In this document: positions 49,977-64,000 of the stretch, in pieces
Numbering within the stretch: position 1 is the stretch's first letter
Layout of the letters: each line of letters begins with the position of its first letter
Assembly (NCBI GenBank): GCA_030913385.1
Contig: CP133159.1
Coordinates: 640,584-704,583, forward strand
Direction of reading: 5' to 3'
DNA length: 64,000 nt
Origin: Cytophagaceae bacterium ABcell3
GTDB lineage: Bacteria > Bacteroidota > Bacteroidia > Cytophagales > Cytophagaceae
The notes under the pieces: generated by a model
Database searches by the model: none
What the model was told of the DNA's origin: nothing
The model's input: the letters and a program-made list of their open reading frames with translations, nothing else
Program-made: the position numbers and the translations under genes

Positions 49977-50678
49977 TCATTTTCCCCCTGTCCTTTTTTC
50001 CAGCACTTCTATTTTTCTGGTAAAGTGTTTTCTCAGTTCATCAACAAAGGAAAGCGGGTTTTTATAGGTAGCCATGACCGTATATAAATAAGAACTTTTC
50101 AGTTCTTTTATGCCTGAGGCTATAACCTGTTTTTTCTTTTCAAGGAACCCTCGTCTAAGTTCAGGGTCAATGTCAACTTTTGCCGAAGTGCCGCCTATGA
50201 AGGTAGAAGCAATTACCCTTTCATAAAACTTTATGAGCTCTTCAAGGTCTTCGTGCTTATAGATTCGGTTGAGTTCTGCGGTTAACTTTGTTGCAGTTTT
50301 TTCTGCATCCTGGCAACCCGTTTGAATCAGCTTATCTGGGTGTACCTGTCTTATTGCTTCTTTATAAATCCTTTTGAGCACCTTTTTCTCCTCCTCATTG
50401 AGAATGAATGTTGCCTTTTTGCTTGCTTTTTTATCGTTGGGCTGTGGGTTGTTTTGTTCTTGTTCAGGCTGTTCTGTTTTGGTTTGTTCTTGCTGTTTCT
50501 TGTAGATATTGGTAAGCTCCTGTACCCGTTCTATTTCTTTGTGCAAACGGTTATGGACTTCGTTTTCCAACGGGGCAAGTTGCTTTTGCACTTTTTTCAA
50601 CTCTTGTGTTAGCAGTGCTATTTCTTTTTGTAATGCTTGTATATGTTCGGGCGTGTTTGAGTTATGGGAGTGTTCCAT
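49977..50678 (-). CDS. J-domain protein with N-terminal coiled coil
   Basis: KKVLKRIYKEAIRQVHPDKL (HPD motif); 233 aa. Confidence 0.7.
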   Translation of the reverse strand: MEHSHNSNTPEHIQALQKEIALLTQELKKVQKQLAPLENEVHNRLHKEIERVQELTNIYKKQQEQTKTEQPEQEQNNPQPNDKKASKKATFILNEEEKKVLKRIYKEAIRQVHPDKLIQTGCQDAEKTATKLTAELNRIYKHEDLEELIKFYERVIASTFIGGTSAKVDIDPELRRGFLEKKKQVIASGIKELKSSYLYTVMATYKNPLSFVDELRKHFTRKIEVLEKRTGGK

Positions 50679-50681
50679 AGT

Positions 50682-51158
50682 TTAAATTTTTAGCGCATCC
50701 ACTTCACTTTCATAATCATATTGCAAATCTTCATGCAAGCCCGCTAAGGCTTTTTCAATGTTTTCAACCTGCCGTTGGTATAAGTTGAGCAGCACCTTAG
50801 AGTCTTGGAAGGGGAGATTCGTTTCCTGAAGCTTCTTGCAAAAGAATATCAGCAATTCCACTTCCGTTTCTTTTTTCCCGGAATATCGGATATATTTTTT
50901 GGTCATTTTCAGAACCTTTCTGATGGTTTTTTTCGCCAGGTAAAGTGAAGATTTGTTTACCTTGCTTAGTTCTGCCTCTATCTGCTCACTAACTGACTGA
51001 ATGAAAGCATGCTCATCGCCAGATTCAAATAAAAGGTAGCTGAGCAGTTCTTTATTTTCCTGCTTATAGCGGGCAAGCCTGATCAGTATTTTTTGCAGCT
51101 CTTCGGTAGGCAGTCCTGCCAATTCTTTTTTTATGGTAGTTAAAGTTGCGGTTTTCAA
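50682..51158 (-). CDS. Hypothetical protein, co-oriented with and adjacent to the J-domain gene
   Basis: 158-aa ORF ending 3 nt before the next gene. Confidence 0.4.
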   Translation of the reverse strand: MKTATLTTIKKELAGLPTEELQKILIRLARYKQENKELLSYLLFESGDEHAFIQSVSEQIEAELSKVNKSSLYLAKKTIRKVLKMTKKYIRYSGKKETEVELLIFFCKKLQETNLPFQDSKVLLNLYQRQVENIEKALAGLHEDLQYDYESEVDALKI

Positions 51159-51224
51159 ATTTTCTGCAATTTACCTTAAAGATAAGCCTTTCATGATTAA
51201 ATACCGGAATTGACATAGTTAACT

Positions 51225-51755
51225 TTAAGTATGGCTGCAGCAGGGTTTTTGGAAGTAATCTATGGGGTTGAGGTAGAAAGCCTTTTTCCAGCCTTGCCTG
51301 TCACTGTCTATCCGCCATGGGTAAGGAATAGGTGTAACTATAGAATAGTGTAGATGTGGAGCTTTCCCTCTAGCGTTTCCCGTAGTGCCGACAGTTCCTA
51401 GCAATGCCTTATGGCTTACAAAAGTGAACGGAGAAGTGCTTATTTCTTTCAGGTGTGCATAATAGTGCAGTCGCCATTTAGGACCAATGACAAACACTAC
51501 TTTTCCGCCCATTGGCACATCTCCGGCAAAGAGCACTAAGCCAGTGGTGGCAGAAAAAATTTCAGTGCCTTCTCTGGCAAAAATATCTACCCCCTTGTGC
51601 GTTACCGACTTTCCCCATGGGTAGTACCAGAATGATTGTGGATGATAGTCTGCTTTGGTTGCACCGGCTACGGGCATATGTAAGTGCTGGGGTATGGCCA
51701 GCCCTGCTATAATGATAATGAGCAGCGTTATTACAGCTTTTTTCTTTTTAGTCAT
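51225..51755 (-). CDS. M23 family (LytM-like) peptidase
   Basis: HKGVDIFAREGTEIFSATTG...GNARGKAPHLHYSIV; N-terminal TM MTKKKKAVITLLIIIIAGLAI. Confidence 0.75.
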   Translation of the reverse strand: MTKKKKAVITLLIIIIAGLAIPQHLHMPVAGATKADYHPQSFWYYPWGKSVTHKGVDIFAREGTEIFSATTGLVLFAGDVPMGGKVVFVIGPKWRLHYYAHLKEISTSPFTFVSHKALLGTVGTTGNARGKAPHLHYSIVTPIPYPWRIDSDRQGWKKAFYLNPIDYFQKPCCSHT

Positions 51756-52146
51756 TTTGTTATTAGTGCTGGCAGGTTTTATTTCGTCCGGATCATTTCT
51801 GTTTCCCCCGGTTTCTAAAATAAATGTTCGTTCCACTTGTATTCCGATCCTCTGCCTAAAGTTGTTTTGAATATAAGCATGATCCAGAGTAAAGAAAATA
51901 CTACAGGGAGAAAAACTAGTTTTAATCTAGGTCAGCAGCAGGTGTATGAAAAAGGTAGTGTTTTAAAAGGGCGTCATGATTTTTGTGATATATGGGCGTT
52001 AAACAGGGGGGATGAAGATCTTGTTCTTTGGTAGGGAGTAAATGCAGGCTTGAATAAAGGAGTGTCTACTGTGTAACATACGGTGTTTGGGAAAAACCAG
52101 CCCTGTATTACCAGGGCGGTTTTTGATGTATGTTCATATCTTGTGC

Positions 52147-52455
52147 TTATACAGTTTGGGGCACTTTCAGAATATACTCTTTGATCCTTTGTGCGTCTGA
52201 AGGCTTGAAGTTTACCAGTTTTACCTTTTGTCTTACCACATTATGTCCGAATACCGTCAGCAGCTCTCCGAAGGAAGAGTTAAGAAAAGATGAAGACATA
52301 GGTGTGCATCCACTTAAAGATAATCTGACGTCACTTCCTTGCCTTAATTCTTTTTCTATAGCTAAATAAAGCAAATGGCCATCAGCGTTAGTAGATGTGC
52401 CTTTGACTATATCGTAAAGGTTTATCTTTTTCATATGAATGGGCTTTATATTCAA
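52147..52455 (-). CDS. STAS-like small protein (DUF4325-like)
   Basis: About 100 aa; ...VRLSLSGCTPMSSSFLNSSFGEL... resembles my recollection of STAS-like DUF4325. Confidence 0.35.
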   Translation of the reverse strand: MNIKPIHMKKINLYDIVKGTSTNADGHLLYLAIEKELRQGSDVRLSLSGCTPMSSSFLNSSFGELLTVFGHNVVRQKVKLVNFKPSDAQRIKEYILKVPQTV

Positions 52456-52790
52456 ATTTACGAAAATTATAAATTAAATTCTATATCTGCTTATATTTCA
52501 GAAATATAGTAGGCCTTCAAGTACTCTGTTGTTGCGTATTCAATATGCTTTAAAACACTGGCTGAAATATTTTGGGTCAGAGTAACCAGTGTTATCTATT
52601 GCAAAGGTGCTTTATTTCTTATTGATTTATTGAGTTTTAGATTATATTTATGGTTAATTATATAAAGGCAGCTAGTATGAGAGATATGGTAAAACTGCCT
52701 GCTTTTGCAATGCATCTGAGTGCTGGTGTTTTGTCACGGGACAGGAGCCTTTTGCAAGCCGGATTTGATATTTACTTTAGAACAGTGATT

Positions 52791-53765
52791 ATGAAAGCTC
52801 AATTTTTAATATTATCAGCTATTTTTTTTGTGCTCCTTTCTTGTAAGAAGGAGCCAGAGGAAGAAGTGTCTCTGGAAGGGGATAAGGGTGTTTCTTTGTT
52901 TTTTTCTTCTAATAGGACAGGAAACTATGAGATTTATGTAAAAAAAGATGGTTCGTTAGTACAGGTAACAGATGATAAAAACCTGGACAGTTGGTGGCTC
53001 CGGGTTTCGCCGGATGGGAAAACCTTAATATGCTATCGTTCCCGTGCAATCAATAAAAACAATAACTATGAAGATGCAACCCTTTGGTCCATGAACCTCG
53101 ATGGCTCAGACGCTAAAAAACTAATTGCTTTGGACGACAATCAGTGGAAAGCCCAAGGAGTTGCCGACTGGTCTCCCGACGGCACCCAACTGGTAATGGC
53201 AGCAATAGAAGGCGCTTCCAATAGGTGGCATTTGTTTATAACAGATAGTAATGGTAAAAATGCTAAGAAAGTATCATCCAGAACAAGTATTTATCTTGAC
53301 CCGTCCTTTTCGCCTGATGGGTCAAAAATAGTGTTCTCCTCTTTTCCTCTCGGTTATAATGGTACAGACCTGGCAAAGCTTGAGATTTATACGATGAACA
53401 CAGATGGCTCTGAAGAGACAAGACTTACCTTTGACGACATAAGAGACCACGACCCTTATTGGGCCCCAGATGGAAAGGAAATTGCTTTTGAATCTGCGAT
53501 GGAGCCAGAATATCTTGATGTTGGCAAATGGGCATTGAGAAGCGTGGAGCCGGATGGTAGCAACTTAAGGGTTATTTTGCATGATGGACATATCAATACC
53601 GTTCCTCGCTGGAATAAAAGTTCAGAAGTCTTATATTTCCATAAATTAAATTTTGGGGCTCCAGGTTTCAGGATTTATAAAGTTAGTAAAGATGGCTCTG
53701 GCCTAAAGCAGCTTACATCAGGACCCGGTCACTATGATGATACAGATGTGGAAGTAGTGGATTGA
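52791..53765 (+). CDS. TolB-like PD40 beta-propeller lipoprotein
   Basis: MKAQFLILSAIFFVLLSCKK lipobox; repeated SPDGxxL/VF PD40 motifs. Confidence 0.7.
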   Translation: MKAQFLILSAIFFVLLSCKKEPEEEVSLEGDKGVSLFFSSNRTGNYEIYVKKDGSLVQVTDDKNLDSWWLRVSPDGKTLICYRSRAINKNNNYEDATLWSMNLDGSDAKKLIALDDNQWKAQGVADWSPDGTQLVMAAIEGASNRWHLFITDSNGKNAKKVSSRTSIYLDPSFSPDGSKIVFSSFPLGYNGTDLAKLEIYTMNTDGSEETRLTFDDIRDHDPYWAPDGKEIAFESAMEPEYLDVGKWALRSVEPDGSNLRVILHDGHINTVPRWNKSSEVLYFHKLNFGAPGFRIYKVSKDGSGLKQLTSGPGHYDDTDVEVVD

Positions 53766-53935
53766 AAGCCTGGGAAGTTTAAGGTCAAAATTGCAAAAGG
53801 GGGTTATGCCAGTTGCCTTGCGTATGCTTGCCCACGCTTTGCTTACAATTAAACACATAAAAATAACTTTATAGGCTATGGCAATATCATTATCTTTATG
53901 CGCTATGCATCGTTAGCAAATAATATATAATTGGC

Positions 53936-55045
53936 ATGATTACTTCTTTGGAAATAAAAGGTTATAAGTCGATAAAGGAAATGCGCTTGGAATTAAAACC
54001 AGTAAATGTTCTTATTGGCAGTAATGGATCTGGCAAAAGCAACTTTATTTCCTTTTTTAAGTTCCTTTCTGCAGTCTTCAAAGGCCAGTTGCAGAGGTTT
54101 ATTATAGAACACAAGACCGACAATATTTTATATTTTGGGAGAAAGACTACTGAAAGCCTTTTTGGCAGATTGGAGTTTTGCTACGGTAAGGTAAATACAT
54201 TTTCTTACTCATTTAGGCTTGACCAAGACAAGGAAGGTGGTTTGGTTATTCAAGAAGAGGGGGTCGGTTATAACCCTAGTGAAAGTCCCAAGAAGTGGTT
54301 TTATCACAGTCAAGCAGGATATGAAAGCAAAATTCAGAACGCGACATCTGTTAAAGATAGAACCCTCGTTTTTGACTATGTAAAGAATGTCCTCGTTTAT
54401 CATTTTCATGACACCTCTTCTACCTCCTATTTAAGAAGGAGTTGTGATATTACAGATAATAAAGTTTTAAAGCCAGATGGCAGAAACCTTCCAGCTTTTC
54501 TATACGACCTTAAGATAAAGCATCCTGTTATTTATAAGAGGATTATTAAAACTGTTCAATCTGTAGCGCCTTATATATATGATTTGATTCTTGAACCTGG
54601 TAGCGTCCCTGGGAAGGAGTCTGAAATTGAGTTGCGGTGGATTGATGCAAGCGATTTGGAGTCAAATTTTTCAGCGTATCAATTTTCCGATGGGACTTTG
54701 CGCTTTATTGCTTTAGCGACACTTTTGCTACAGCCGGATCCGCCTTCTGTAATCATTGTTGATGAGCCGGAACTTGGGCTGCATCCAATGGCTATTTCCA
54801 AACTTGCAGGTATGGTGCAATCTGCATCGGCCAAAGCGCAGGTAATCGTATCGACACAGTCTGTTAACTTGGTGGACTGTTTTGCTCCTGAAGACATTAT
54901 TACGGTAGATCGAGATGGAAAGGGCAAGCAGTCAATTTTTAATAGGTTAGATCCCCATGAGCTGGAAGACTGGCTTAAAGGACATTCTCTTGGCGAACTT
55001 TGGAGTAGGAACATTATTAACTCAGCCCAGCCTTTTACCAAATGA
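53936..55045 (+). CDS. AAA_21/ABC-type ATPase (OLD/RecF-like)
   Basis: Walker A LIGSNGSGKSNF, Q-loop, Walker B VIIVDEPELGLHP, and signature-like LAGMVQSASAKAQVIVSTQS. Confidence 0.8.
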   Translation: MITSLEIKGYKSIKEMRLELKPVNVLIGSNGSGKSNFISFFKFLSAVFKGQLQRFIIEHKTDNILYFGRKTTESLFGRLEFCYGKVNTFSYSFRLDQDKEGGLVIQEEGVGYNPSESPKKWFYHSQAGYESKIQNATSVKDRTLVFDYVKNVLVYHFHDTSSTSYLRRSCDITDNKVLKPDGRNLPAFLYDLKIKHPVIYKRIIKTVQSVAPYIYDLILEPGSVPGKESEIELRWIDASDLESNFSAYQFSDGTLRFIALATLLLQPDPPSVIIVDEPELGLHPMAISKLAGMVQSASAKAQVIVSTQSVNLVDCFAPEDIITVDRDGKGKQSIFNRLDPHELEDWLKGHSLGELWSRNIINSAQPFTK

Positions 55046-55698
55046 AACGTTTGATCATTATCGGAGAGGGGGCTACTGAGCAAGAATTTTGCAAGGGCGT
55101 GCTGGCGCCTTATTTTTATAGTAAGGGCATACGGATAGAAAATCCGAAAATAAGGGCTTCCCGAGGAGGAATAGTGCCTTGGCCAAAGTTAAAAGATGAG
55201 ATTGAGATTTATTTAAAAAACGACACTAATGCCTATGTTACTTTGCTCATAGATTATTATGGGCTTTATGACAAACACTATTTTCCTTGTTGGGAAGAAG
55301 CGCATAAGGAAGCAACGAAGGCAGAATGCGTGTCTGTCATAGAATTAGGCATGAAAGAGGAGGTGAACAAGAAGCTTAGCGATCGTTTTATACCATATAT
55401 TCAACTACACGAGCTAGAAGCGCTAATTTTTAGTGACCCTTCAGTGGTTTTAAGTAATTTTGAGGAAAGCGAGTTTAAAAATATTGAATATTTAGACGCG
55501 ACACTAAAGGAGTTCCCCAACCCCGAGGATATCAACAACAATAAACAAACTGCACCTTCCAAACGTCTAGAAAGGATTTTTAGGAATTATAGGAAAGTAG
55601 TTTTCGGTAGCTTGCTGCTTGAAGAAATAGGCCTTCCAAAGATTAGGAAGAAATGCCCACGTTTTAATGCTTGGATTCAGGAGTTGGAAAGTATTTGA
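55042..55698 (+). CDS. DUF4276-like protein with TOPRIM-like N-terminal motif
   Basis: MKRLIIIGEGATEQEF resembles the TOPRIM EG..E loop. It overlaps the ATPase gene by ATGA. Confidence 0.6.
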   Translation: MKRLIIIGEGATEQEFCKGVLAPYFYSKGIRIENPKIRASRGGIVPWPKLKDEIEIYLKNDTNAYVTLLIDYYGLYDKHYFPCWEEAHKEATKAECVSVIELGMKEEVNKKLSDRFIPYIQLHELEALIFSDPSVVLSNFEESEFKNIEYLDATLKEFPNPEDINNNKQTAPSKRLERIFRNYRKVVFGSLLLEEIGLPKIRKKCPRFNAWIQELESI

Positions 55699-55741
55699 AG
55701 ATGCCTTAAGTGTTATTAGCCGACAGACAGGTGGTAAGCGG

Positions 55742-56011
55742 CTACGCTGTATAACTACCATTAATCATATCCCATATAAACTGTCTTCCTTGGGCAGTTT
55801 TAAGCTGTTTTTCTCTTTCCAAGGCTTCTTGCTTGGTTTGAAAAGCTTCTTTGTAAAATAAAATCCATGGACGATATCTGATTGTCCAGCCTTTAGTGGC
55901 ATGTTCATTATGTGAATTTACAATTTCTTTAAGGTTGGATGTGCTGCCAATGTATATTTTTTGGTATTGCGGAGAATATAAGACGTAGGTGTGGTACATG
56001 ATAGCAAGCAA
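55742..56011 (-). CDS. GIY-YIG domain protein
   Basis: YVLYSPQYQKIYIGSTSNLKEIVNSHN. Confidence 0.75.
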   Translation of the reverse strand: MLAIMYHTYVLYSPQYQKIYIGSTSNLKEIVNSHNEHATKGWTIRYRPWILFYKEAFQTKQEALEREKQLKTAQGRQFIWDMINGSYTA

Positions 56012-56185
56012 GTTATGGTTTTTTTAAAAAAATAGAACCAAAATCATTGACTTCTGTTACATATATACTACCTTTGTAATCCCAAACGCAAAGAGAGAGA
56101 AAGAAAAAAGAAGTTGAAAGGTTTGGGAAAAGCTTATCCGGAGTTATGACCGAACTCTTGACAGAGAAAAAGCAAAATACCACAT

Positions 56186-56258
<73 letters not shown>

Positions 56259-56266
56259 CTAGAGAG

Positions 56267-56298
56267 AAGCCTCAGAGAAATCTGAGGCTTTTGTATTT
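56267..56298 (+). terminator. Rho-independent terminator after the tRNA
   Basis: AAGCCTCAGAGAAATCTGAGGCTTTTGTATTTT. Confidence 0.8.
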
Positions 56299-56467
56299 TA
56301 AAGGGCTCTATCTTTGGCTATAAGGCTTAATTTTTTGTTGCCGGCTATATTGTGCCTATTTTTCGTTTTAATTGAGAAAAATAATTATCAGGGATTTGAA
56401 AATAAAGATATAGTTTTGTTCTTTAGAGTTAAATTTTATAATATTGTTTTCGTTCAACAGCTATTGA

Positions 56468-57010
56468 ATGAAAAGGGAAATAATAAACGGAAAGACTAGT
56501 ATTCAGGGTTTTCATACTCAAGAAAATAGGCCTTACGCATTAACAGCTCCAGTAAAATGTGTAGATAGTAAAGCATGGTTAGGGTCAGGCTATTATTTTT
56601 GGACAGACGAAACCTTTGCAAGATATTGGGGTATAGATTATAAAATGAAAACTGGCAGCTATGATATTTATACTGGCTATATTGAAGAAAACAACTTGCT
56701 TAATACCACCTTTTGTGAAGAAGATTATTTTTTTCTAAAAAATAACATTGAAAAGGCTATTAAAAGAATTAAAAAAATCCCAAAAGAAGTAAACTTAAAA
56801 CAAGTACATCGTTTTCTGCAAAAAGAAGTCTGGGGGAAACTTGGAATTAAAGGTATAATTTATGATGACCTCCCTCACAATAGTTATAAAAAAAATAGAA
56901 CATATTCACTGCTAGATCCCTTATATTATAATAAGCGTATACAGATAGTAGTTTTTACTCTTGATTGTGTTAACAATTTTGAAGAATATTTAATTGAACA
57001 AACCTCCTGA
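56468..57010 (+). CDS. Hypothetical 180-aa protein (first gene of the SecB-like trio; toxin candidate)
   Basis: No motif I recognise; overlaps the next gene. Confidence 0.4.
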   Translation: MKREIINGKTSIQGFHTQENRPYALTAPVKCVDSKAWLGSGYYFWTDETFARYWGIDYKMKTGSYDIYTGYIEENNLLNTTFCEEDYFFLKNNIEKAIKRIKKIPKEVNLKQVHRFLQKEVWGKLGIKGIIYDDLPHNSYKKNRTYSLLDPLYYNKRIQIVVFTLDCVNNFEEYLIEQTS

Positions 57011-57251
57011 TAATATGAAAACAAAATCAAAATTTGACCTAAATGAGATGCAAAGGAAGTTTGACAAAATTCTTGATTCTTTTAGTGATGAGGATTTGGT
57101 TGAGTGGTTTGAATTAGATGAAGAAGAGCAGTTGGAGAATTTATTAAAAGGAAAAACTATAACTTTGTCTTCTTGTAAAAGATGCGGTGGCTCTTTCGCT
57201 GAAGAAATTGAGCACACCATAGGCAATGATCATTCTCCTTTAGCAGCATGA
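56994..57251 (+). CDS. Small acidic protein with CxxC...HxxxxxH (antitoxin candidate)
   Basis: An 85-aa ORF; SSCKRCGGSFAEEIEHTIGNDH. Overlaps both neighbours. Confidence 0.4.
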   Translation: MNKPPDNMKTKSKFDLNEMQRKFDKILDSFSDEDLVEWFELDEEEQLENLLKGKTITLSSCKRCGGSFAEEIEHTIGNDHSPLAA

Positions 57252-57670
57252 CAAAGTATACAGCAGAAGAACAGCCTAAGATTCGCTTAAAGCGGTTCAA
57301 TGTTATTAATATAAAATTTAACATTGAAGAAGCCGAATGGGGCAACAGGGATGTTTTTAATAGTTCTGAATACTCGGTAAGCTTTAAATTGCTTGATAGA
57401 GAAAAAGATTTTTTTGATATTGTTTTTGACATAACTCTTAAAGGCGAAAATAGAGCTTTTCTTCTTGAAACATCATTTTTAGCATCCTTTGAGAGCAAAG
57501 GAGTAGAAGTTAACGACAAATATTTAGAAAGCCCACTTATAAAACATAATGCCCCTGCAATTGTTTTTCCTTTTATAAGGGCATTTCTTTCTACTATTAT
57601 GTTGAATGCTGGTTATAATCCGATAATTTTGCCTTCATTTAATTTTCATAGTCAGAAAGAAATAAAGTGA
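57248..57670 (+). CDS. SecB-like chaperone
   Basis: HNAPAIVFPFIRAFLSTIMLNAGYNPIILPSFNF parallels E. coli SecB [34 protein letters not shown]. Confidence 0.6.
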   Translation: MTKYTAEEQPKIRLKRFNVINIKFNIEEAEWGNRDVFNSSEYSVSFKLLDREKDFFDIVFDITLKGENRAFLLETSFLASFESKGVEVNDKYLESPLIKHNAPAIVFPFIRAFLSTIMLNAGYNPIILPSFNFHSQKEIK

Positions 57671-57741
57671 GTTTTTAGTATGCGCAGTTTCGTGGAATAT
57701 CCGGAGAGTCTGATATGCCAGAAGGGAAAGTATTTATAAAA

Positions 57742-58592
57742 TCAAACCTTCCTCTTTGGCATACAAAACTCTACTCCTTCCTTGAGTCCCTGATCAGAAA
57801 CCTGTTCTCTTACCATATTCCATAATTTCCTCATCCCGTTAGTATCAAGTGCTTTATCTTTATTCATGGTCACTCCCTGAGATTTGGCTTCACTAGTAAA
57901 CCCTTCCAGCCTAATTGCAGGTCTTTTAAACCCAACGGAGTTGTACTCATCATATGTTTTACAGGGGGCAAAACTGTACATACCTTCATAAGGGCTGGAG
58001 TAAGTGGCACCTAAATAAAGTTTAAAAACAGTTTCCGGTTTTGCTTGAGTACATACTGGCTCTAAACCTACTTTGTAAAACACCTGTGGCACTTTATCTT
58101 TTAAGGATCTCACCTTGTCTAATTTATATGGGATTGAATCTTTAATGACAAAAACGGTATCAAGGCAGAATGCCCCGTTGACAGATGAGCCAAACAGTAT
58201 AACAGAACCTGGCGGAAGCTCTGTTAGTCCTTGTCCAGGTTTTGTACCTTGTTGGCAAATACTATAATAAAAGGTACTGCCGAATACGAATGGGTCGGTA
58301 TTGTGTAAGTCCTTATAATTGGGTAGCAGTTGGTAATATGGCTCAAACAGATAAGATGGTAGGCCTCCTGAATTAATTGAGTAGGTCTTTAGCAAACTTG
58401 CCGGCGCCTCCCACTCTCCCCAAAAAACCAGTTCAGTTTCGACTGTACGATCTTTTTGTAAATCTACATACTTGCCTTACGACTTCAAAAAAGTTCTTTT
58501 ATGTTCACTAGGTAAAGTGTTCCAAGGCTTGGACTCTCCATCCGGTTTTGATTCGGGGCCAGGATGTAAAAATTGTATCAACTGTTTCATAG
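57742..58592 (-). pseudogene. Hypothetical gene whose 283-codon frame is interrupted by one in-frame TAA
   Basis: ATG at 58590-58592, then MKQLIQFLHPGPE...KRTFLKS, a TAA, then the same frame continues GKYVDLQ...LLKTYSINSGG... to the stop at 57742. The ORF track lists only the TTG-initiated part 57742..58395. Confidence 0.45.
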
Positions 58593-58705
58593 TAAATTTA
58601 CTTAAGGAACAAAAGATTTTATAAACACGTAAAAATGTAAAAATTTAGTCAATATTACACTTTTTTCAATGAGCCTAATTTGATTTAGGTTAAATTTGCC
58701 CTCAA

Positions 58706-61099
58706 ATGGATAAAAAAGCTCTTTCAGAACGAGACATCTGCACAAAGTTCATTACCCCTGCTATTGAAAAGGCTGGCTGGGACAAACAAACCCAACTTTT
58801 AGAGGAAGTTACCTTTACAGATGGAAAGATTCATGTAAGGGGAAAGTTGACCGGAAGAGGGGCAAGAAAAAGAGCGGACTATATTCTCTATTATAAACCT
58901 AATATTCCCATAGCCATCATTGAGGCAAAAGATAATAAACATTCGGTTCGTGCCGGCATTCAACAAGCTTTGGATTATGCTGCCATTCTGGACATACCCT
59001 GTGTTTTCAGCAGTAATGGGGATGGATTTCTTTTCCACGACCGCACTTCGGAGGGTGAGGATATAGAAAAAGAAATTGACCTGGAAAGCTTCCCTTCTCC
59101 AAAAGAGCTATGGGAAAAATATAAAAAGTATAAGGGCATCATAACACCTGAAGCAGAAAAAATGGCTGCGCAGGAATACTATTTTGACGGAAGCGGCAGG
59201 AGTCCAAGGTATTATCAGCAAGTTGCGGTAAACCGTGCCGTAGAGGCTATCGCCAAGGGGCAGGATCGGATTTTGCTGGTGATGGCCACCGGTACTGGTA
59301 AAACCTATACGGCTTTCCAGATTATACACAGGCTATGGAAAAGCGGTGCAAAAAAGCGGATTTTGTTCCTCGCTGACCGGAATGCACTTATTGACCAGAC
59401 AAAGCGGGGCGACTTTAAGCACTTCAAGGATAAAATGACGGTGATTAAGCACCGCATGATTGACAAAAGCTATGAGGTTTATCTGGCCTTGTACCAGGGT
59501 CTGAGCGGAGCAGATGAAGATGCCAATGCCTATAAACAGTTTTCAAGGGAATTCTTTGATCTTATAGTAATAGATGAGTGCCACCGGGGAAGCGCAAAAG
59601 AAGACAGTGCCTGGAGAGAGATTTTAAATTATTTTGATAAGGCTACGCATATAGGCCTCACAGCTACGCCAAAAGAAACCAAAGAGGTTTCCAATTCTGA
59701 TTATTTTGGTGAACCGGTTTACACGTATTCTTTAAAACAAGGTATCGATGATGGGTTTCTTGCTCCTTACAGGGTTATTCGGGTTAGTTTAAATGTTGAT
59801 GCCGAAGGCTGGAGGCCGGAACAAGGCAAAAAAGACAAGTCCGGTAATGAAGTGGAAGACAGGGTATACAACCGCAGAGACTTTGACCGTAACCTGATAA
59901 TTGATGAAAGGACAGAAGCCGTTGCCCGTAAACTTACTGAGTTCCTGCATGGTTATGACAGATTTGCGAAAACCATTGTTTTTTGTAACGATATTGACCA
60001 TGCAGAGCGGATGCGTTCGGCATTATCAAACCTGAATGCGGATTTGGTGGCCAAAAACCATAAGTATATCATACAGATTACAGGGGACAATGAGGAAGGT
60101 AAACGTGAGCTGGACAATTTTATAAATCCTGAGGAAATTTATCCTGTAATTGCAACCACTTCTGAATTAATGACAACCGGCGTGGACGCGCAGACTTGCA
60201 AGGTCATTGTGCTGGATGCAGAAATTAAGTCTATGACCAAATTTAAGCAGATAGTAGGACGGGGTACACGTATAAATGAGGAGTATGATAAACTTTACTT
60301 TACCATCCTGGATTTCCGGAACGTAACTGACCTGTTCGCAGATAAAGATTTTGACGGCGATCCTGTCAGGATTAAAGAAACACGTGAGGAGGATAATCTT
60401 CAAGGAGTAGTTGACGAAGAGACTTGTAGTGGCACTGAAGTTGTCGATGAACTTACCGGAGAACCAATAGATCTGACAGAAGGAAAAAACTTTTATTCAA
60501 AACCTGACCTTGCATCTAAAGCAAGTGAACCAAGGCCTAAGGTTTATGTTAACGGCGTGGATGTTTCTGTTTTAATATCCCGGGAGATGCATTTTGACAA
60601 CAATGGCAAGCCTATAACCACAAGCCTGAAAGACCATACCCGGGAAATTATTAAAGAAAAGTTTTCCTCTCTGGATGATTTCCTGAACACCTGGAGCAAT
60701 GCTGAAAAGAAAGAAGTTATAATAAAGGAGCTGGAAGAGCAGGGTGTGTTGGTAGAAGCCCTAAGAGATGCGGTAAACCGTGAGGTTGATTTGTTTGACC
60801 TGATTTGCCATGTGGCCTTTGACCAGCCACCGCTTACGCGCAAAGAAAGGGCAAACAATGTGAAAAAGAGAAATTATTTTACAAAATACGGCCCTGCGGC
60901 GAGAAAAGTACTGGAGGCGCTTCTGGATAAATATGCCGATGAAGGCGTTACCAATATTGAAAGCATGGAGGTGCTGAAGGTTAAGCCGCTTACAGAATTT
61001 GGTTCGGCCATAGAGATTCTGGGCAATTTCGGAGGCAAGAAGCAGTACCTGGAGGCTATTAAGGAACTGGAAAAAGAATTATATAAAACAGGTGCATAG
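58706..61099 (+). CDS. hsdR: Type I restriction enzyme R subunit
   Basis: N-terminal HsdR nuclease region (ADYILYY...IAIIEAKD), helicase motifs LLVMATGTGKT and DECHRG, and a C-terminal HsdR domain. Confidence 0.85.
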   Translation: MDKKALSERDICTKFITPAIEKAGWDKQTQLLEEVTFTDGKIHVRGKLTGRGARKRADYILYYKPNIPIAIIEAKDNKHSVRAGIQQALDYAAILDIPCVFSSNGDGFLFHDRTSEGEDIEKEIDLESFPSPKELWEKYKKYKGIITPEAEKMAAQEYYFDGSGRSPRYYQQVAVNRAVEAIAKGQDRILLVMATGTGKTYTAFQIIHRLWKSGAKKRILFLADRNALIDQTKRGDFKHFKDKMTVIKHRMIDKSYEVYLALYQGLSGADEDANAYKQFSREFFDLIVIDECHRGSAKEDSAWREILNYFDKATHIGLTATPKETKEVSNSDYFGEPVYTYSLKQGIDDGFLAPYRVIRVSLNVDAEGWRPEQGKKDKSGNEVEDRVYNRRDFDRNLIIDERTEAVARKLTEFLHGYDRFAKTIVFCNDIDHAERMRSALSNLNADLVAKNHKYIIQITGDNEEGKRELDNFINPEEIYPVIATTSELMTTGVDAQTCKVIVLDAEIKSMTKFKQIVGRGTRINEEYDKLYFTILDFRNVTDLFADKDFDGDPVRIKETREEDNLQGVVDEETCSGTEVVDELTGEPIDLTEGKNFYSKPDLASKASEPRPKVYVNGVDVSVLISREMHFDNNGKPITTSLKDHTREIIKEKFSSLDDFLNTWSNAEKKEVIIKELEEQGVLVEALRDAVNREVDLFDLICHVAFDQPPLTRKERANNVKKRNYFTKYGPAARKVLEALLDKYADEGVTNIESMEVLKVKPLTEFGSAIEILGNFGGKKQYLEAIKELEKELYKTGA

Positions 61100-61155
61100 A
61101 CTTCGTTTCCTTAAACGATTACAAAAAAAAAAATTAAAGTCGCTTAAATAACACA

Positions 61156-62802
61156 ATGGCAAATTTAAAAGGAATTATTGACAGCATCCGCAAAATCATG
61201 TGGCAGGATACAGGTTTGAATGGCGATGCGCAGCGGGTGGAACAATTGGGCTGGATGCTGTTCCTGAAAATATTTTCTGATAAAGATAAAGAACTCGAAG
61301 TACTCAATGATGCCTATGTAAGCCCTATACCTGAAGCGCTGCACTGGGATGCCTGGGCGGGAGATGATGAAGGTATTACCGGTGATGAGCTGATTGAATT
61401 TGTGGACCGTAGGTTGTTCCCTGAGTTAAGAAACCTTGCGATTGGCTACACGGATGACCTTGCAAACAAGCGTGCTAAAATTGTGAAGGAGGTTTTTGAA
61501 GGGAACAACAATTACATGAAGAGCGGTATCAACATCCGAAAGGTGTTGAACAAACTGAATGAGATTGATTTTAATATTGCCAAAGATCGCCACGCTTTTG
61601 GGGAACTGTACGAAACCATACTGAAAGAATTGCAAAGTGCCGGGAAAAGCGGCGAGTTCTATACCCCAAGAGCCATTACGGAGTTTATCTGTGAAATGAT
61701 AAACCCTCAGCTGGACGAAAAAATCCTGGATCCCAGTTGTGGTACAGGGGGTTACCTGACCGCAGCCATTGAACACCTAAAGGATCAGGCCAATAGTGTT
61801 GAGGAAAGGGAAAGTATTGCGCAGAATGTCATAGGCTGGGAGTATAAACCCCTGCCATACCTGTTGGCAACCACCAACCTTATCCTGCATGACATGGAGG
61901 TTCCGAACATTACCTTCCGTGACTCGCTGGACCAGCCTTTGAGCAACTATACCGAAAAAAACAGGGTAGATGCCATTCTTGCCAACCCGCCTTTTGGAGG
62001 CATTGTTGCCAACAACAACGAAAACAATTTTCCGCAGAGCTACCGTACCAAAGAAAGTGCGGACCTGTTTCTGGTGCTGATGATTCACCTGCTGAAAAAG
62101 GGCGGACGTGCAGGTATCGTATTACCAGATGGCTCCCTTACGGGCGATGGCGTTAAACAAAGGGTTAGGCAGCGATTGCTTGAAGAGTGCAACCTGCACA
62201 CCATCATTCGTCTGCCGAATTCGGTATTTCAGCCCTATGCAACTGTAGCCACCAATCTGCTTTTCTTTACCAAAGGTGAGCCTACTTCTGAAATCTGGTA
62301 CTATGAGCACCGCCTACCGGAAGGACAAAAGGCCTACAGCAAAACCAGACCCATTAACATCAGCGAGTTTGAACCGATAAAGGACTGGTGGAACAAGCGT
62401 GAAGAGTCTGAAATTTGCTGGAAGGTAAACATTAAAGAAAGAATAGCGGAGGCGAAGCAAAAGGCAGAAACTTATTGGGACAAAGCAGAAGAGGCAAACA
62501 AAACTATAAGCAGACTGAAGGCGGAACTGGCTGGAATAAACCAGAAGATAAAAGATGATGCCACGCTGGAAAAAAGAAAAAAGTCTAAACTAAAGGACAT
62601 CCAGGAGCAAGAGGTATTGGCCAAAAACAACCAGCAGACCGGAGACAATATTTACTATCAGGCTTTTGACCTTGACATAAAAAATCCGCATAAAAAAGAA
62701 GAAGCCGTAGAATACAGCAGCAGTGAACTGATGCTAATGCTCGAAAACTCCTTTGCCCAAAGTGCTAAATTGCTGAACCAGTTAAAGGAGGTGGTGAAAT
62801 GA
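61156..62802 (+). CDS. hsdM: Type I RM N6-adenine methyltransferase M subunit
   Basis: FYTPRAI, LDPSCGTGG and the NPPFGG catalytic motif. Confidence 0.9.
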   Translation: MANLKGIIDSIRKIMWQDTGLNGDAQRVEQLGWMLFLKIFSDKDKELEVLNDAYVSPIPEALHWDAWAGDDEGITGDELIEFVDRRLFPELRNLAIGYTDDLANKRAKIVKEVFEGNNNYMKSGINIRKVLNKLNEIDFNIAKDRHAFGELYETILKELQSAGKSGEFYTPRAITEFICEMINPQLDEKILDPSCGTGGYLTAAIEHLKDQANSVEERESIAQNVIGWEYKPLPYLLATTNLILHDMEVPNITFRDSLDQPLSNYTEKNRVDAILANPPFGGIVANNNENNFPQSYRTKESADLFLVLMIHLLKKGGRAGIVLPDGSLTGDGVKQRVRQRLLEECNLHTIIRLPNSVFQPYATVATNLLFFTKGEPTSEIWYYEHRLPEGQKAYSKTRPINISEFEPIKDWWNKREESEICWKVNIKERIAEAKQKAETYWDKAEEANKTISRLKAELAGINQKIKDDATLEKRKKSKLKDIQEQEVLAKNNQQTGDNIYYQAFDLDIKNPHKKEEAVEYSSSELMLMLENSFAQSAKLLNQLKEVVK

Positions 62803-64000
62803 GTTGGAAAATTGAAACGTTTGGAAGTCTATTACAAGAAAGTCGAATACCTGCTGAAAACCCTGATGCTAATAAAAGGATAAGGGTAAAATTAAATGTT
62901 CTGGGAGTTGAAAAACGGCCTGTAGGGGTAGAAAAAGAAGGTGCAACAAATCAGTACATTAGAAAAGCAGGACAGTTTATTTATGGCAAACAGAACTTTC
63001 ATAAAGGCGCTTTCGGAATAGTGCCAGAATCTTTAGATGGATTTGAAACCAGCGCAGATATCCCTTCTTTTGATGTAAGAGAAGACTGCTTGCCAGAATG
63101 GATATTCTATTTTTTTAAAGTTGGAAATAAATTTTTGGAACTTGAAAAGTTCGCAAGAGGAGTTGGTTCAAAAAGAATTCATCCAAAACAAATTGAAGAG
63201 CTGGAAATTCCGCTTCCTCCAATCAGGATACAAGAAAAAGTTATAGGTAAAGTAAAAAAACTTGAATCATCAGGACAGGAGCTTTCCACAGAACTCACCC
63301 ACCAGCTTGACCTGGTAAAACAGCTTCGGCAGGCTTTTCTAAGGGAGGCCATTCAGGGAAAACTTGTTCCGCAAGACCCGAATGATGAACCGGCAAGCGT
63401 GCTTCTGAAAAAAATAAAAGCTGAAAAAGAGCAGTTAATAAAAGAGAAAAAAATTAAAAAAGGGAAACCGCTGCCACCAGTCAGTGAAGAGGAGGTTCCT
63501 TTTGATATTCCGGACAATTGGGTTTGGTGTAGGTTGGGGGAGGTAGTTGAACTTATTTCTGGACAGGATTTAAATCCAAGTCAATATTCCGACCAAAAAA
63601 CAGATGGCCTACCCTATCTTACTGGCGCAAGTAATTTTAATAACGGCAACGTTATTCTAAATAGATGGACAAAATCTCCTAGATCAGTAGCATATAAGGG
63701 AGATTTGTTGGTCACCTGCAAAGGCTCAGGGATTGGGAAAATGGCAACTTTGGAGGCTAAAAAGGTTCATATTGCCAGGCAAATAATGGCGATAAGGAAT
63801 TTTGCTTCGCTGCCTTCTTATTTTATACAAAAAATTGTTGAATTTAATGTGACTGATTACAAATCAAAATCTAAGAGTTCTATCCCTGGGATTGGTAGAG
63901 ATATTGTATTAAATACTTTATCCCCTCTTCCACCTCTTGCCGAACAACTTCGCATTGTTGCTAAACTTGAAGAGCTAATGAACTACTGCGACCAACTGGA
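62799..64000 (+). CDS. hsdS: Type I RM specificity subunit (3' end beyond window)
   Basis: ATG overlaps the hsdM stop (ATGA). Two TRDs are separated by a conserved LREAIQGKL helix; the C-terminal LAEQLRIVAKLEELMNYCDQL lies at the window edge. Confidence 0.8.
   Translation, partial: MSWKIETFGSLLQESRIPAENPDANKRIRVKLNVLGVEKRPVGVEKEGATNQYIRKAGQFIYGKQNFHKGAFGIVPESLDGFETSADIPSFDVREDCLPEWIFYFFKVGNKFLELEKFARGVGSKRIHPKQIEELEIPLPPIRIQEKVIGKVKKLESSGQELSTELTHQLDLVKQLRQAFLREAIQGKLVPQDPNDEPASVLLKKIKAEKEQLIKEKKIKKGKPLPPVSEEEVPFDIPDNWVWCRLGEVVELISGQDLNPSQYSDQKTDGLPYLTGASNFNNGNVILNRWTKSPRSVAYKGDLLVTCKGSGIGKMATLEAKKVHIARQIMAIRNFASLPSYFIQKIVEFNVTDYKSKSKSSIPGIGRDIVLNTLSPLPPLAEQLRIVAKLEELMNYCDQL

Follow-up and report, generated by a model that had tools for sequence, protein, structure and literature searches.

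A three-gene locus of Cytophagaceae bacterium ABcell3 is very probably a divergent CmdTAC-family toxin-antitoxin-chaperone cassette

What do three consecutive genes ending in one for a SecB-like chaperone do in a member of the Bacteroidota? The genes lie in a stretch of 64,000 nt from Cytophagaceae bacterium ABcell3 (contig CP133159.1, positions 640,584 to 704,583 of the forward strand), hereafter the window, to which all coordinates refer. A sequence-only reading had taken them for a candidate tripartite toxin-antitoxin-chaperone (TAC) module with a stand-alone SecB-like chaperone and unfamiliar toxin and antitoxin partners, and had described SecB as scarce in Bacteroidota, as published counts bear out (9 of the 3813 SecBs analyzed; PMC4361572). 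Our analysis indicates that the trio is very probably a CmdTAC-family (PD-T4-9) cassette that sits in a defence island of ABcell3 and most likely acts against phages by abortive infection. The tripartite architecture was thus supported, being homologous to the validated CmdTAC and conserved as a unit. The toxin, in turn, is no HigB, MqsR or HicA, as had been stated, and belongs to a known family, CmdT (PD-T4-9_A); only the middle protein remains without a detectable family, which is the known state of CmdA. The three open reading frames (ORFs) are as follows:

56468-57010, + strand: ORF1, cmdT-like toxin gene, 180 aa, ATG start (RCC89_02975)
57015-57251, + strand: ORF2, cmdA-like antitoxin gene, 78 aa, acidic product ending in ...HSPLAA (RCC89_02980)
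57248-57670, + strand: ORF3, cmdC-like gene for a SecB-family chaperone, 140 aa, ATG start

RCC89_02975 and RCC89_02980 are each recorded as "hypothetical protein" in the source genome, and the analysis would give three "hypothetical" genes of ABcell3 an annotation as a CmdTAC-type abortive-infection system.

PD-T4-9, found in 2022 in E. coli ECOR22, has been renamed CmdTAC (PMC9519451); studies of 2024 explained how it works (PMC11618068; bioRxiv 10.1101/2024.02.24.581848). CmdT is a diphtheria-toxin-like ADP-ribosyltransferase (ART) with an H-Y-[E/D/Q] triad, the activity of which is killed by Y41A (PMC11618068); it modifies adenine at N6 within GA dinucleotides of single-stranded RNA (ssRNA) or mRNA and thereby blocks translation (PMC11618068; bioRxiv 10.1101/2024.02.24.581848). 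CmdA combines two N-terminal helices with a disordered tail that has LAA at its end (PMC11618068). It is degraded by ClpXP unless shielded by a tetramer of the SecB-like CmdC, and an AA-to-DD change at its LAA inactivates the system (PMC11618068; bioRxiv 10.1101/2024.02.24.581848). The complex has a 1:1:4 toxin:antitoxin:chaperone composition, and T4's major capsid protein titrates CmdC away (PMC11618068).

Under the published rule, which we applied, CmdTAC is called where CmdT and CmdC are encoded no more than two genes apart, and CmdA is not needed; the sequence of CmdA is too variable to serve in calling the system, and the gene is often unannotated (PMC9519451). By this rule, the ABcell3 locus counts as CmdTAC, with ORF3 starting 238 nt past the end of ORF1 on the same strand, and it carries every sequence-level feature by which the system is defined. 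Homology of the antitoxin to CmdA, which was not detected here (see below), is not a defining feature under the same rule. We regard the cassette as a new, divergent representative of an established family, CmdTAC; the system itself is not new. The data directly support toxin and chaperone homology, the ART fold, the catalytic triad, the terminal LAA, the gene order and the behaviour of the trio as a cassette.

As the E. coli reference, we used the locus of E. coli N2250, which is near-identical to the ECOR22 CmdTAC. It was retrieved with the cmdT-cmdA junction rebuilt from primer CD22 (the paper's supplement), at 96.7% identity over 60 nt. Its products of 192, 77 and 129 aa match PD-T4-9_A, _B and _C at 4e-97, 3e-38 and 7e-61, respectively, and it lies in a P2-like prophage, between replication endonuclease/DinI-like genes and the portal gene. 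Residue numbering in the CmdT paper begins two codons inside the RefSeq ORF.

We assign ORF1 to the CmdT family on several lines of sequence comparison. Two PADLOC models of PD-T4-9_A matched it (PDLC04068, E 3.4e-10; PDLC04069, E 5.1e-08), with residues 13-168 covering positions 8-168 of 187 in the model; searches of NCBIfam and PHROGs returned no family. In hhalign comparisons, the ORF1 family reached a probability of 95.2% (E 2.5e-8) against E. coli CmdT and of 99.8% (E 1.9e-27) against a bridging clade, likewise from Bacteroidota, whose members score as well as E 9e-57 on PD-T4-9_A. The predicted structure of ORF1 has an ART fold (predicted local distance difference test [pLDDT] 93), that is, the diphtheria-toxin/exotoxin A type of fold expected of a CmdT. 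Its H-Y-Q triad consists of H16, Y43 and Q159, all invariant in the clade of the window's toxin and equivalent to H9, Y41 and Q164 of E. coli CmdT (numbering of the CmdT paper); CmdT Y41 is the second Tyr of GYYFW and aligns with Y43 of ORF1. Across clades, E. coli CmdT included, the joint alignment has nine invariant positions, namely P28, W37, G41, Y43, F44, W45, A51, W54 and Q159, and thus both Y43 and Q159 of the triad.

A second Bacteroidota clade of CmdT homologues (P0207, P0184, P0159, P0175, P0254 and P0267), nearer to PADLOC PDLC04068, has Gln rather than His at the first triad position (xQT versus xHT); the Tyr and the C-terminal Gln are still invariant in it. In a 2694-aa protein (P0174), 9 stretches matched the ORF1 profile at positions 39-93 (E 1.3e-12). 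P0174 was rejected as a relative: it is a surface protein with a type IX secretion system (T9SS) sorting domain and fn3, PPC and Laminin_G repeats, and its match probably reflects repeats or composition, not an ART domain. In a phage collection, tblastn with ORF1 gave no match, and a bridging homologue gave a single one, to a Vibrio phage-like element at 28% identity.

ORF3 has a Pfam SecB match (PF02556) across residues 7-134, which at 40.8 bits (E 2.7e-10) clears the curated cut-off of 26. The PADLOC model PD-T4-9_C recognizes it at E 3.7e-25, and 98 aa of it align to E. coli CmdC with 39% identity (E 3e-18). A family profile made of ORF3 plus 25 relatives matches the SecB structures 1fx3, 1qyn and 5jtl over the full length, and the most conserved block of the family, NAPAIVFPFIRAF...ILPSFNF, is the very segment on which the third gene had earlier been called SecB-like. 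We conclude that ORF3 is a SecB-family protein and not housekeeping SecB, for which the scores are given below.

The trio is also kept together in other genomes. Scanning contigs at one genome per species yielded 172 relatives of ORF1, and the best 79 loci were examined, 78 of them with an intact toxin ORF; 73 of these 78 extended at least 750 nt downstream and made up the testable set. The order toxin, small ORF, SecB-like ORF was found in 72 of the 73, with the SecB-like ORF on the same strand after an antitoxin-sized gap or ORF; the co-occurrence that the sequence-only reading had proposed to check is thus present, and the trio is not dissociated. The existence of ORF1 homologues (68 close ones) and the conserved order argue that the three ORFs are not chance ORFs. 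The best 79 loci are nearly all from Bacteroidota, with some from Ignavibacteria/Melioribacteraceae and Balneolales, and the ORF1-family profile reached 562 cluster representatives (clustering at 50% identity) at E ≤ 0.001; all named members that we encountered are annotated "hypothetical protein". The CmdT family therefore has a large, divergent Bacteroidota branch. No flanking gene family was common to more than 4 of the 79 loci, which indicates that the trio is a self-contained cassette without a conserved fourth component. The 217-aa ORF next to ORF3 (57742-58395, − strand) was considered as such a component and rejected, having no homologue beside any of the 79 cassettes; it matched nothing in Pfam, PADLOC, NCBIfam, PHROGs or PDB sequences.

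The middle gene calls for a decision on its start codon. The ORFs were found where the sequence-only reading had placed them, and of the overlaps it described, the one between ORF2 and ORF3 (4 nt, ATGA) is real and is the sole overlap in the trio. Its 85-aa middle protein corresponds to an alternative TTG start at 56994 (56994-57251). The ATG at 57015, which gives 78 aa, is most likely the start, as it fits the source-genome record and homologues begin at the equivalent position; from this ATG, ORF1 and ORF2 lie 4 nt apart without overlap. The Cys residues of the middle protein had likewise been singled out, but those of its CKRC motif are not kept in homologues and are thus no marker of a metal site.

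ORF2 has the place of CmdA between toxin and chaperone, nearly the size of E. coli CmdA (78 versus 77 aa) and the same terminal LAA (...HSPLAA versus DLAA), and a helix-like N-terminal pattern is common to both. No family for ORF2 was found in Pfam, PADLOC, NCBIfam or PHROGs; a DBD_HTH match was dismissed as weak and under the cut-off (E 0.018), and a word-indexed homologue search returned the query itself only. Relatives were gathered by phmmer and jackhmmer on the ORFs of homologous loci, and phmmer with ORF2 found 18 middle ORFs at E < 1e-3. In the family alignment, ~45 aa at the N-terminal side are conserved, as is the tail, with a variable linker joining the two; in ORF2, only ~35 residues lie beyond the conserved part, with one Phe among them (GGSF).

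These tails proved to have a pattern of their own. Among 64 middle ORFs extracted from the homologous loci, 57 end in Ala-Ala (29 in LAA, 13 in MAA and 6 in IAA), against 4.6% of the ORFs (60 aa or longer) in these loci overall. Six antitoxins (L006, L011, L015, L016, L064 and L071) end exactly in GENNYALAA, from Flavobacterium macacae, Bizionia echini, and metagenome-assembled genomes (MAGs) of Flavobacteriales, Bacteroidia, Bacteroidales and Prolixibacteraceae. Four others (L008, L040, L050 and L055; Sediminibacterium, Chitinophagaceae, a Bacteroidetes MAG and Arcicella) end exactly in GNTQYAMAA, and one Chitinophagaceae antitoxin has the near variant GNTQFAMAA. Both nonapeptides recur as tags of transfer-messenger RNA (tmRNA): GENNYALAA followed by a stop codon occurs in viral contigs at 33 loci, 32 of which are ARAGORN tmRNA genes with that tag, and GNTQYAMAA followed by a stop codon occurs in metagenomes at 40 loci, 35 of which are tmRNA genes with that tag; scanning viral contigs for GNTQYAMAA gave no tmRNA. 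The neighbours of the GENNYALAA tmRNA genes match proteins of Parabacteroides pacaensis, Flavobacterium aquidurense and Dysgonomonas exactly, and those of the GNTQYAMAA genes fall in clusters named Chitinophagales/Chitinophagaceae, Flavitalea and Sediminibacterium. These lineages suggest that the tails match the tag of their own lineage, GENNYALAA going with Flavobacteriales and Bacteroidales and GNTQYAMAA with Chitinophagaceae and Sediminibacterium; in Flavobacterium and Sediminibacterium the agreement extends to the genus. Of the loci obtained by scanning for tag patterns (L081-L194), none carried both a cassette and a tmRNA gene by which matching within one genome could be shown. The ORF2 tail, GNDHSPLAA, shares 4 of 9 positions with GENNYALAA and 4 of 9 with GNTQYAMAA (the latter by inspection) and represents a minimal LAA version.

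A further TAC-like trio, without a CmdT homologue, was seen in a viral contig (IMGVR_UViG_2890318599_000001, 1439-2829); it encodes a 135-aa protein, a 177-aa protein ending in the tmRNA-tag-like ...GSTQYAMAA and a SecB-like protein (hmmsearch E 5.9e-17). Given this trio, tag-like tails may be general to Bacteroidota TAC antitoxins. On balance, we lean towards the view that many Bacteroidota antitoxins, of CmdTAC and at least one other TAC-like trio, end in an exact nine-residue copy of the tmRNA (SsrA) tag whose variant tracks the host lineage. As a general idea, ssrA-like Ala-Ala degrons on TAC antitoxins are already in the literature (PMC11618068; bioRxiv 10.1101/2024.02.24.581848). A full-text literature search for GENNYALAA returned no paper, and lineage-matched copies of the full tag on antitoxins may be a new observation. 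If true, antitoxin turnover would be tied to the host's complete pathway for disposal of trans-translation tags, adaptor and protease included, and the antitoxin tail would need re-tuning after horizontal transfer.

The cassette lies in a predicted defence island (HEC-01, CmdTAC and type I restriction-modification [R-M]) that adjoins a tRNA-Met gene. Around the trio, the following features were recorded:

53936-55698, + strand: HEC-01 two-gene system, with overlapping genes for an AAA_21 ATPase (369 aa) and a DUF4276 protein (218 aa)
55742-56011, − strand: stand-alone GIY-YIG nuclease-domain protein of small size (89 aa; Pfam E 1e-15), flanked by HEC-01 and the tRNA gene
56186-56259, + strand: tRNA-Met (CAT)
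56265-56292, + strand: terminator-like hairpin, 12 bp, 3' of tRNA-Met
56293-56467, + strand: intergenic leader, presumed to hold the trio's promoter
57742-58395, − strand: the 217-aa orphan ORF, convergent with the trio and ending 71 nt downstream of ORF3
58706-62802, + strand: type I R-M genes, HsdR (ResIII, EcoEI_R_C, HSDR_N) and HsdM (N6_Mtase, HsdM_N)

HEC-01 is a candidate defence system, the two proteins of which match the PADLOC models HEC-01A (AAA_21 ATPase, E 3e-130) and HEC-01B (DUF4276, E 5e-75). The G+C content of the cassette (56000-57999) is 33-35%, against mostly 36-44% in the flanks, which is consistent with horizontal acquisition. The tRNA-Met gene is a possible integration site of the island; no direct repeat of its 3' end was found within 50000-64000.

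By homology with the E. coli system, the ABcell3 cassette would be expected to form a complex, to depend on ClpXP, to respond to a phage trigger, to act on an RNA target and to confer a defence phenotype. Specifically, a tetramer of ORF3 would hold the C-terminal part of ORF2 and hide its terminal LAA degron, while ORF2 would keep the ADP-ribosyltransferase ORF1 folded yet inactive. Once a phage infects, one of its freshly synthesized structural proteins would compete for ORF3, ClpXP would then degrade the released ORF2, and ORF1 would use NAD+ to ADP-ribosylate ssRNA or mRNA, such that translation and phage production stop.

Several points weigh against this reading. ORF1 is a distant relative of E. 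coli CmdT, ~21% identical to it in the family alignment and placed in a separate, mainly Bacteroidota clade, and the pairwise BLASTP alignment of the two is limited to WLxxGYYFWTD (E 7e-6); at such remoteness from the characterized toxin, substrate specificity could differ, and functional drift of the toxin is the main uncertainty. Between ORF2 and E. coli CmdA, sequence similarity was not detectable, with no match to PADLOC PD-T4-9_B, no BLASTP alignment and an hhalign probability of 8.3%, and the tail of ORF2 lacks the aromatic residue (Tyr or Phe) that 48 of the 64 homologues have at position −5. The single-sequence AlphaFold model of ORF3 was uninformative (pLDDT 45.6), so the SecB assignment stands on sequence evidence. 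Finally, we know of no phage of Cytophagaceae bacterium ABcell3.

The distance of the toxin bears on a rival in which the TAC architecture is the same and the toxin has another chemistry or target, either NAD+ degradation (as by MbcT and RES toxins) or ADP-ribosylation of protein, DNA, tRNA or rRNA and not of GA sites in mRNA. The solved folds nearest to the ORF1 model are an NAD+ phosphorylase and RES toxins, a likeness at the fold level only, so that a different substrate is possible; the ORF1-family profile has no sequence relative among solved structures. We nevertheless consider this rival unlikely, since the sequence signal of ORF1 is that of CmdT and not of RES, no Pfam family matching at E ≤ 1, and since ORF1 shares the H-Y-Q triad and the GYYFW motif with E. 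coli CmdT. MbcT-MbcA and the RES-Xre systems (ParT-ParS, NatRT) also differ from the trio in having two genes and no chaperone, in acting by NAD+ phosphorolysis or protein ADP-ribosylation, and in showing no sequence-level relation to it (ORF1 has no Pfam RES match).

The cassette might instead be mainly an addiction or stabilization module of an island linked to tRNA-Met, or a silent remnant, with no role in phage defence in its host. TA and TAC modules can stabilize mobile DNA, and both the adjoining tRNA gene and the lower G+C content would suit this explanation. It is improbable, however, given that the three ORFs are intact with catalytic and degron residues kept, that the neighbours are the defence systems HEC-01 and type I R-M, and that both E. 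coli CmdTAC systems tested defend against phages (PMC11618068; bioRxiv 10.1101/2024.02.24.581848). As to the notion that ORF3 is the housekeeping export SecB, with two genes upstream that have nothing to do with it, ORF3 does belong to the same Pfam family as the SecBs of E. coli and H. influenzae (PDB 1qyn and 1fx3), its family profile aligns with these structures over the full length, and RefSeq names the E. coli homologue "protein-export chaperone SecB". Yet ORF3 falls below the cut-off of every NCBIfam housekeeping-SecB equivalog (37 bits at best versus 143), is far closer to PD-T4-9_C, and differs in genomic context, being apparently dedicated to a TA pair; SecB is, moreover, rare in the phylum, and linkage to a toxin gene in 72 of 73 loci effectively refutes the notion, which we regard as scarcely credible.

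The E. coli ECOR22 CmdTAC has the same toxin-antitoxin-chaperone order and similar product sizes (190-192, 77 and 129 aa, versus 180, 78 and 140 aa here), an ART-fold toxin with the GYYFW motif and H-Y-Q triad, an antitoxin ending in LAA and a chaperone that is 39% identical, and it too occupies a variable or defence region. Besides the divergence of toxin and antitoxin described above, the two differ in location, a chromosomal island by tRNA-Met in a Cytophagaceae bacterium here versus a P2-like prophage. The CmdTAC of E. coli O112ab:H26, compared by description only, likewise has an mRNA-modifying ART toxin and an antitoxin with an Ala-Ala end and ClpXP-dependent activation (bioRxiv 10.1101/2024.02.24.581848); its CmdA has ~121 aa (from the 120AA121 notation) versus 78 aa here. 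In HigBAC (M. tuberculosis Rv1955-57; E. coli NT1F31) and MqsRAC, a SecB-like chaperone stabilizes the antitoxin through a C-terminal chaperone-addiction (ChAD) region (in TAC antitoxins generally, a disordered segment with aromatic or hydrophobic residues to which the chaperone binds), the M. tuberculosis HigBAC antitoxin has an ssrA-like terminal degron, and classical TACs have anti-phage roles. Their toxins, however, are RNases of RelE/HigB or MqsR folds and not ARTs, and their antitoxins are DNA-binding helix-turn-helix proteins with long ChAD tails. In HigBAC and MqsRAC operons, the toxin gene is usually not the first.

As to expression, the hairpin closing the upstream tRNA-Met gene implies that the trio needs its own promoter within 56293-56467. 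The Bacteroidota −7 promoter consensus is TAnnTTTG, and TAGTTTTG at 56411-56418 agrees with it, which is weak evidence for a promoter. Bacteroidota mostly do without Shine-Dalgarno-led initiation, and none of the three start codons has a Shine-Dalgarno-like motif ahead of it (searched across 56445-57250); E. coli cmdA, in contrast, is preceded by AAGGAGG. CmdT has been suggested to act by modifying GA sites of Shine-Dalgarno sequences (PMC11618068). The abundance of CmdTAC in Bacteroidota, together with a trio devoid of Shine-Dalgarno motifs, argues that translation can be blocked independently of such modification, which would not explain CmdT function in this phylum. That CmdTAC is common where Shine-Dalgarno sequences are not customary thus bears on how ADP-ribosylation of mRNA blocks translation.

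Two antisense ORFs overlap the cassette, at 56990-57226 (− strand, 78 aa) and 57157-57519 (− strand, 120 aa). Their translations are of low complexity and rich in Ser and Leu, and conservation lies with the genes of the (+) strand, so both are most likely not genes.

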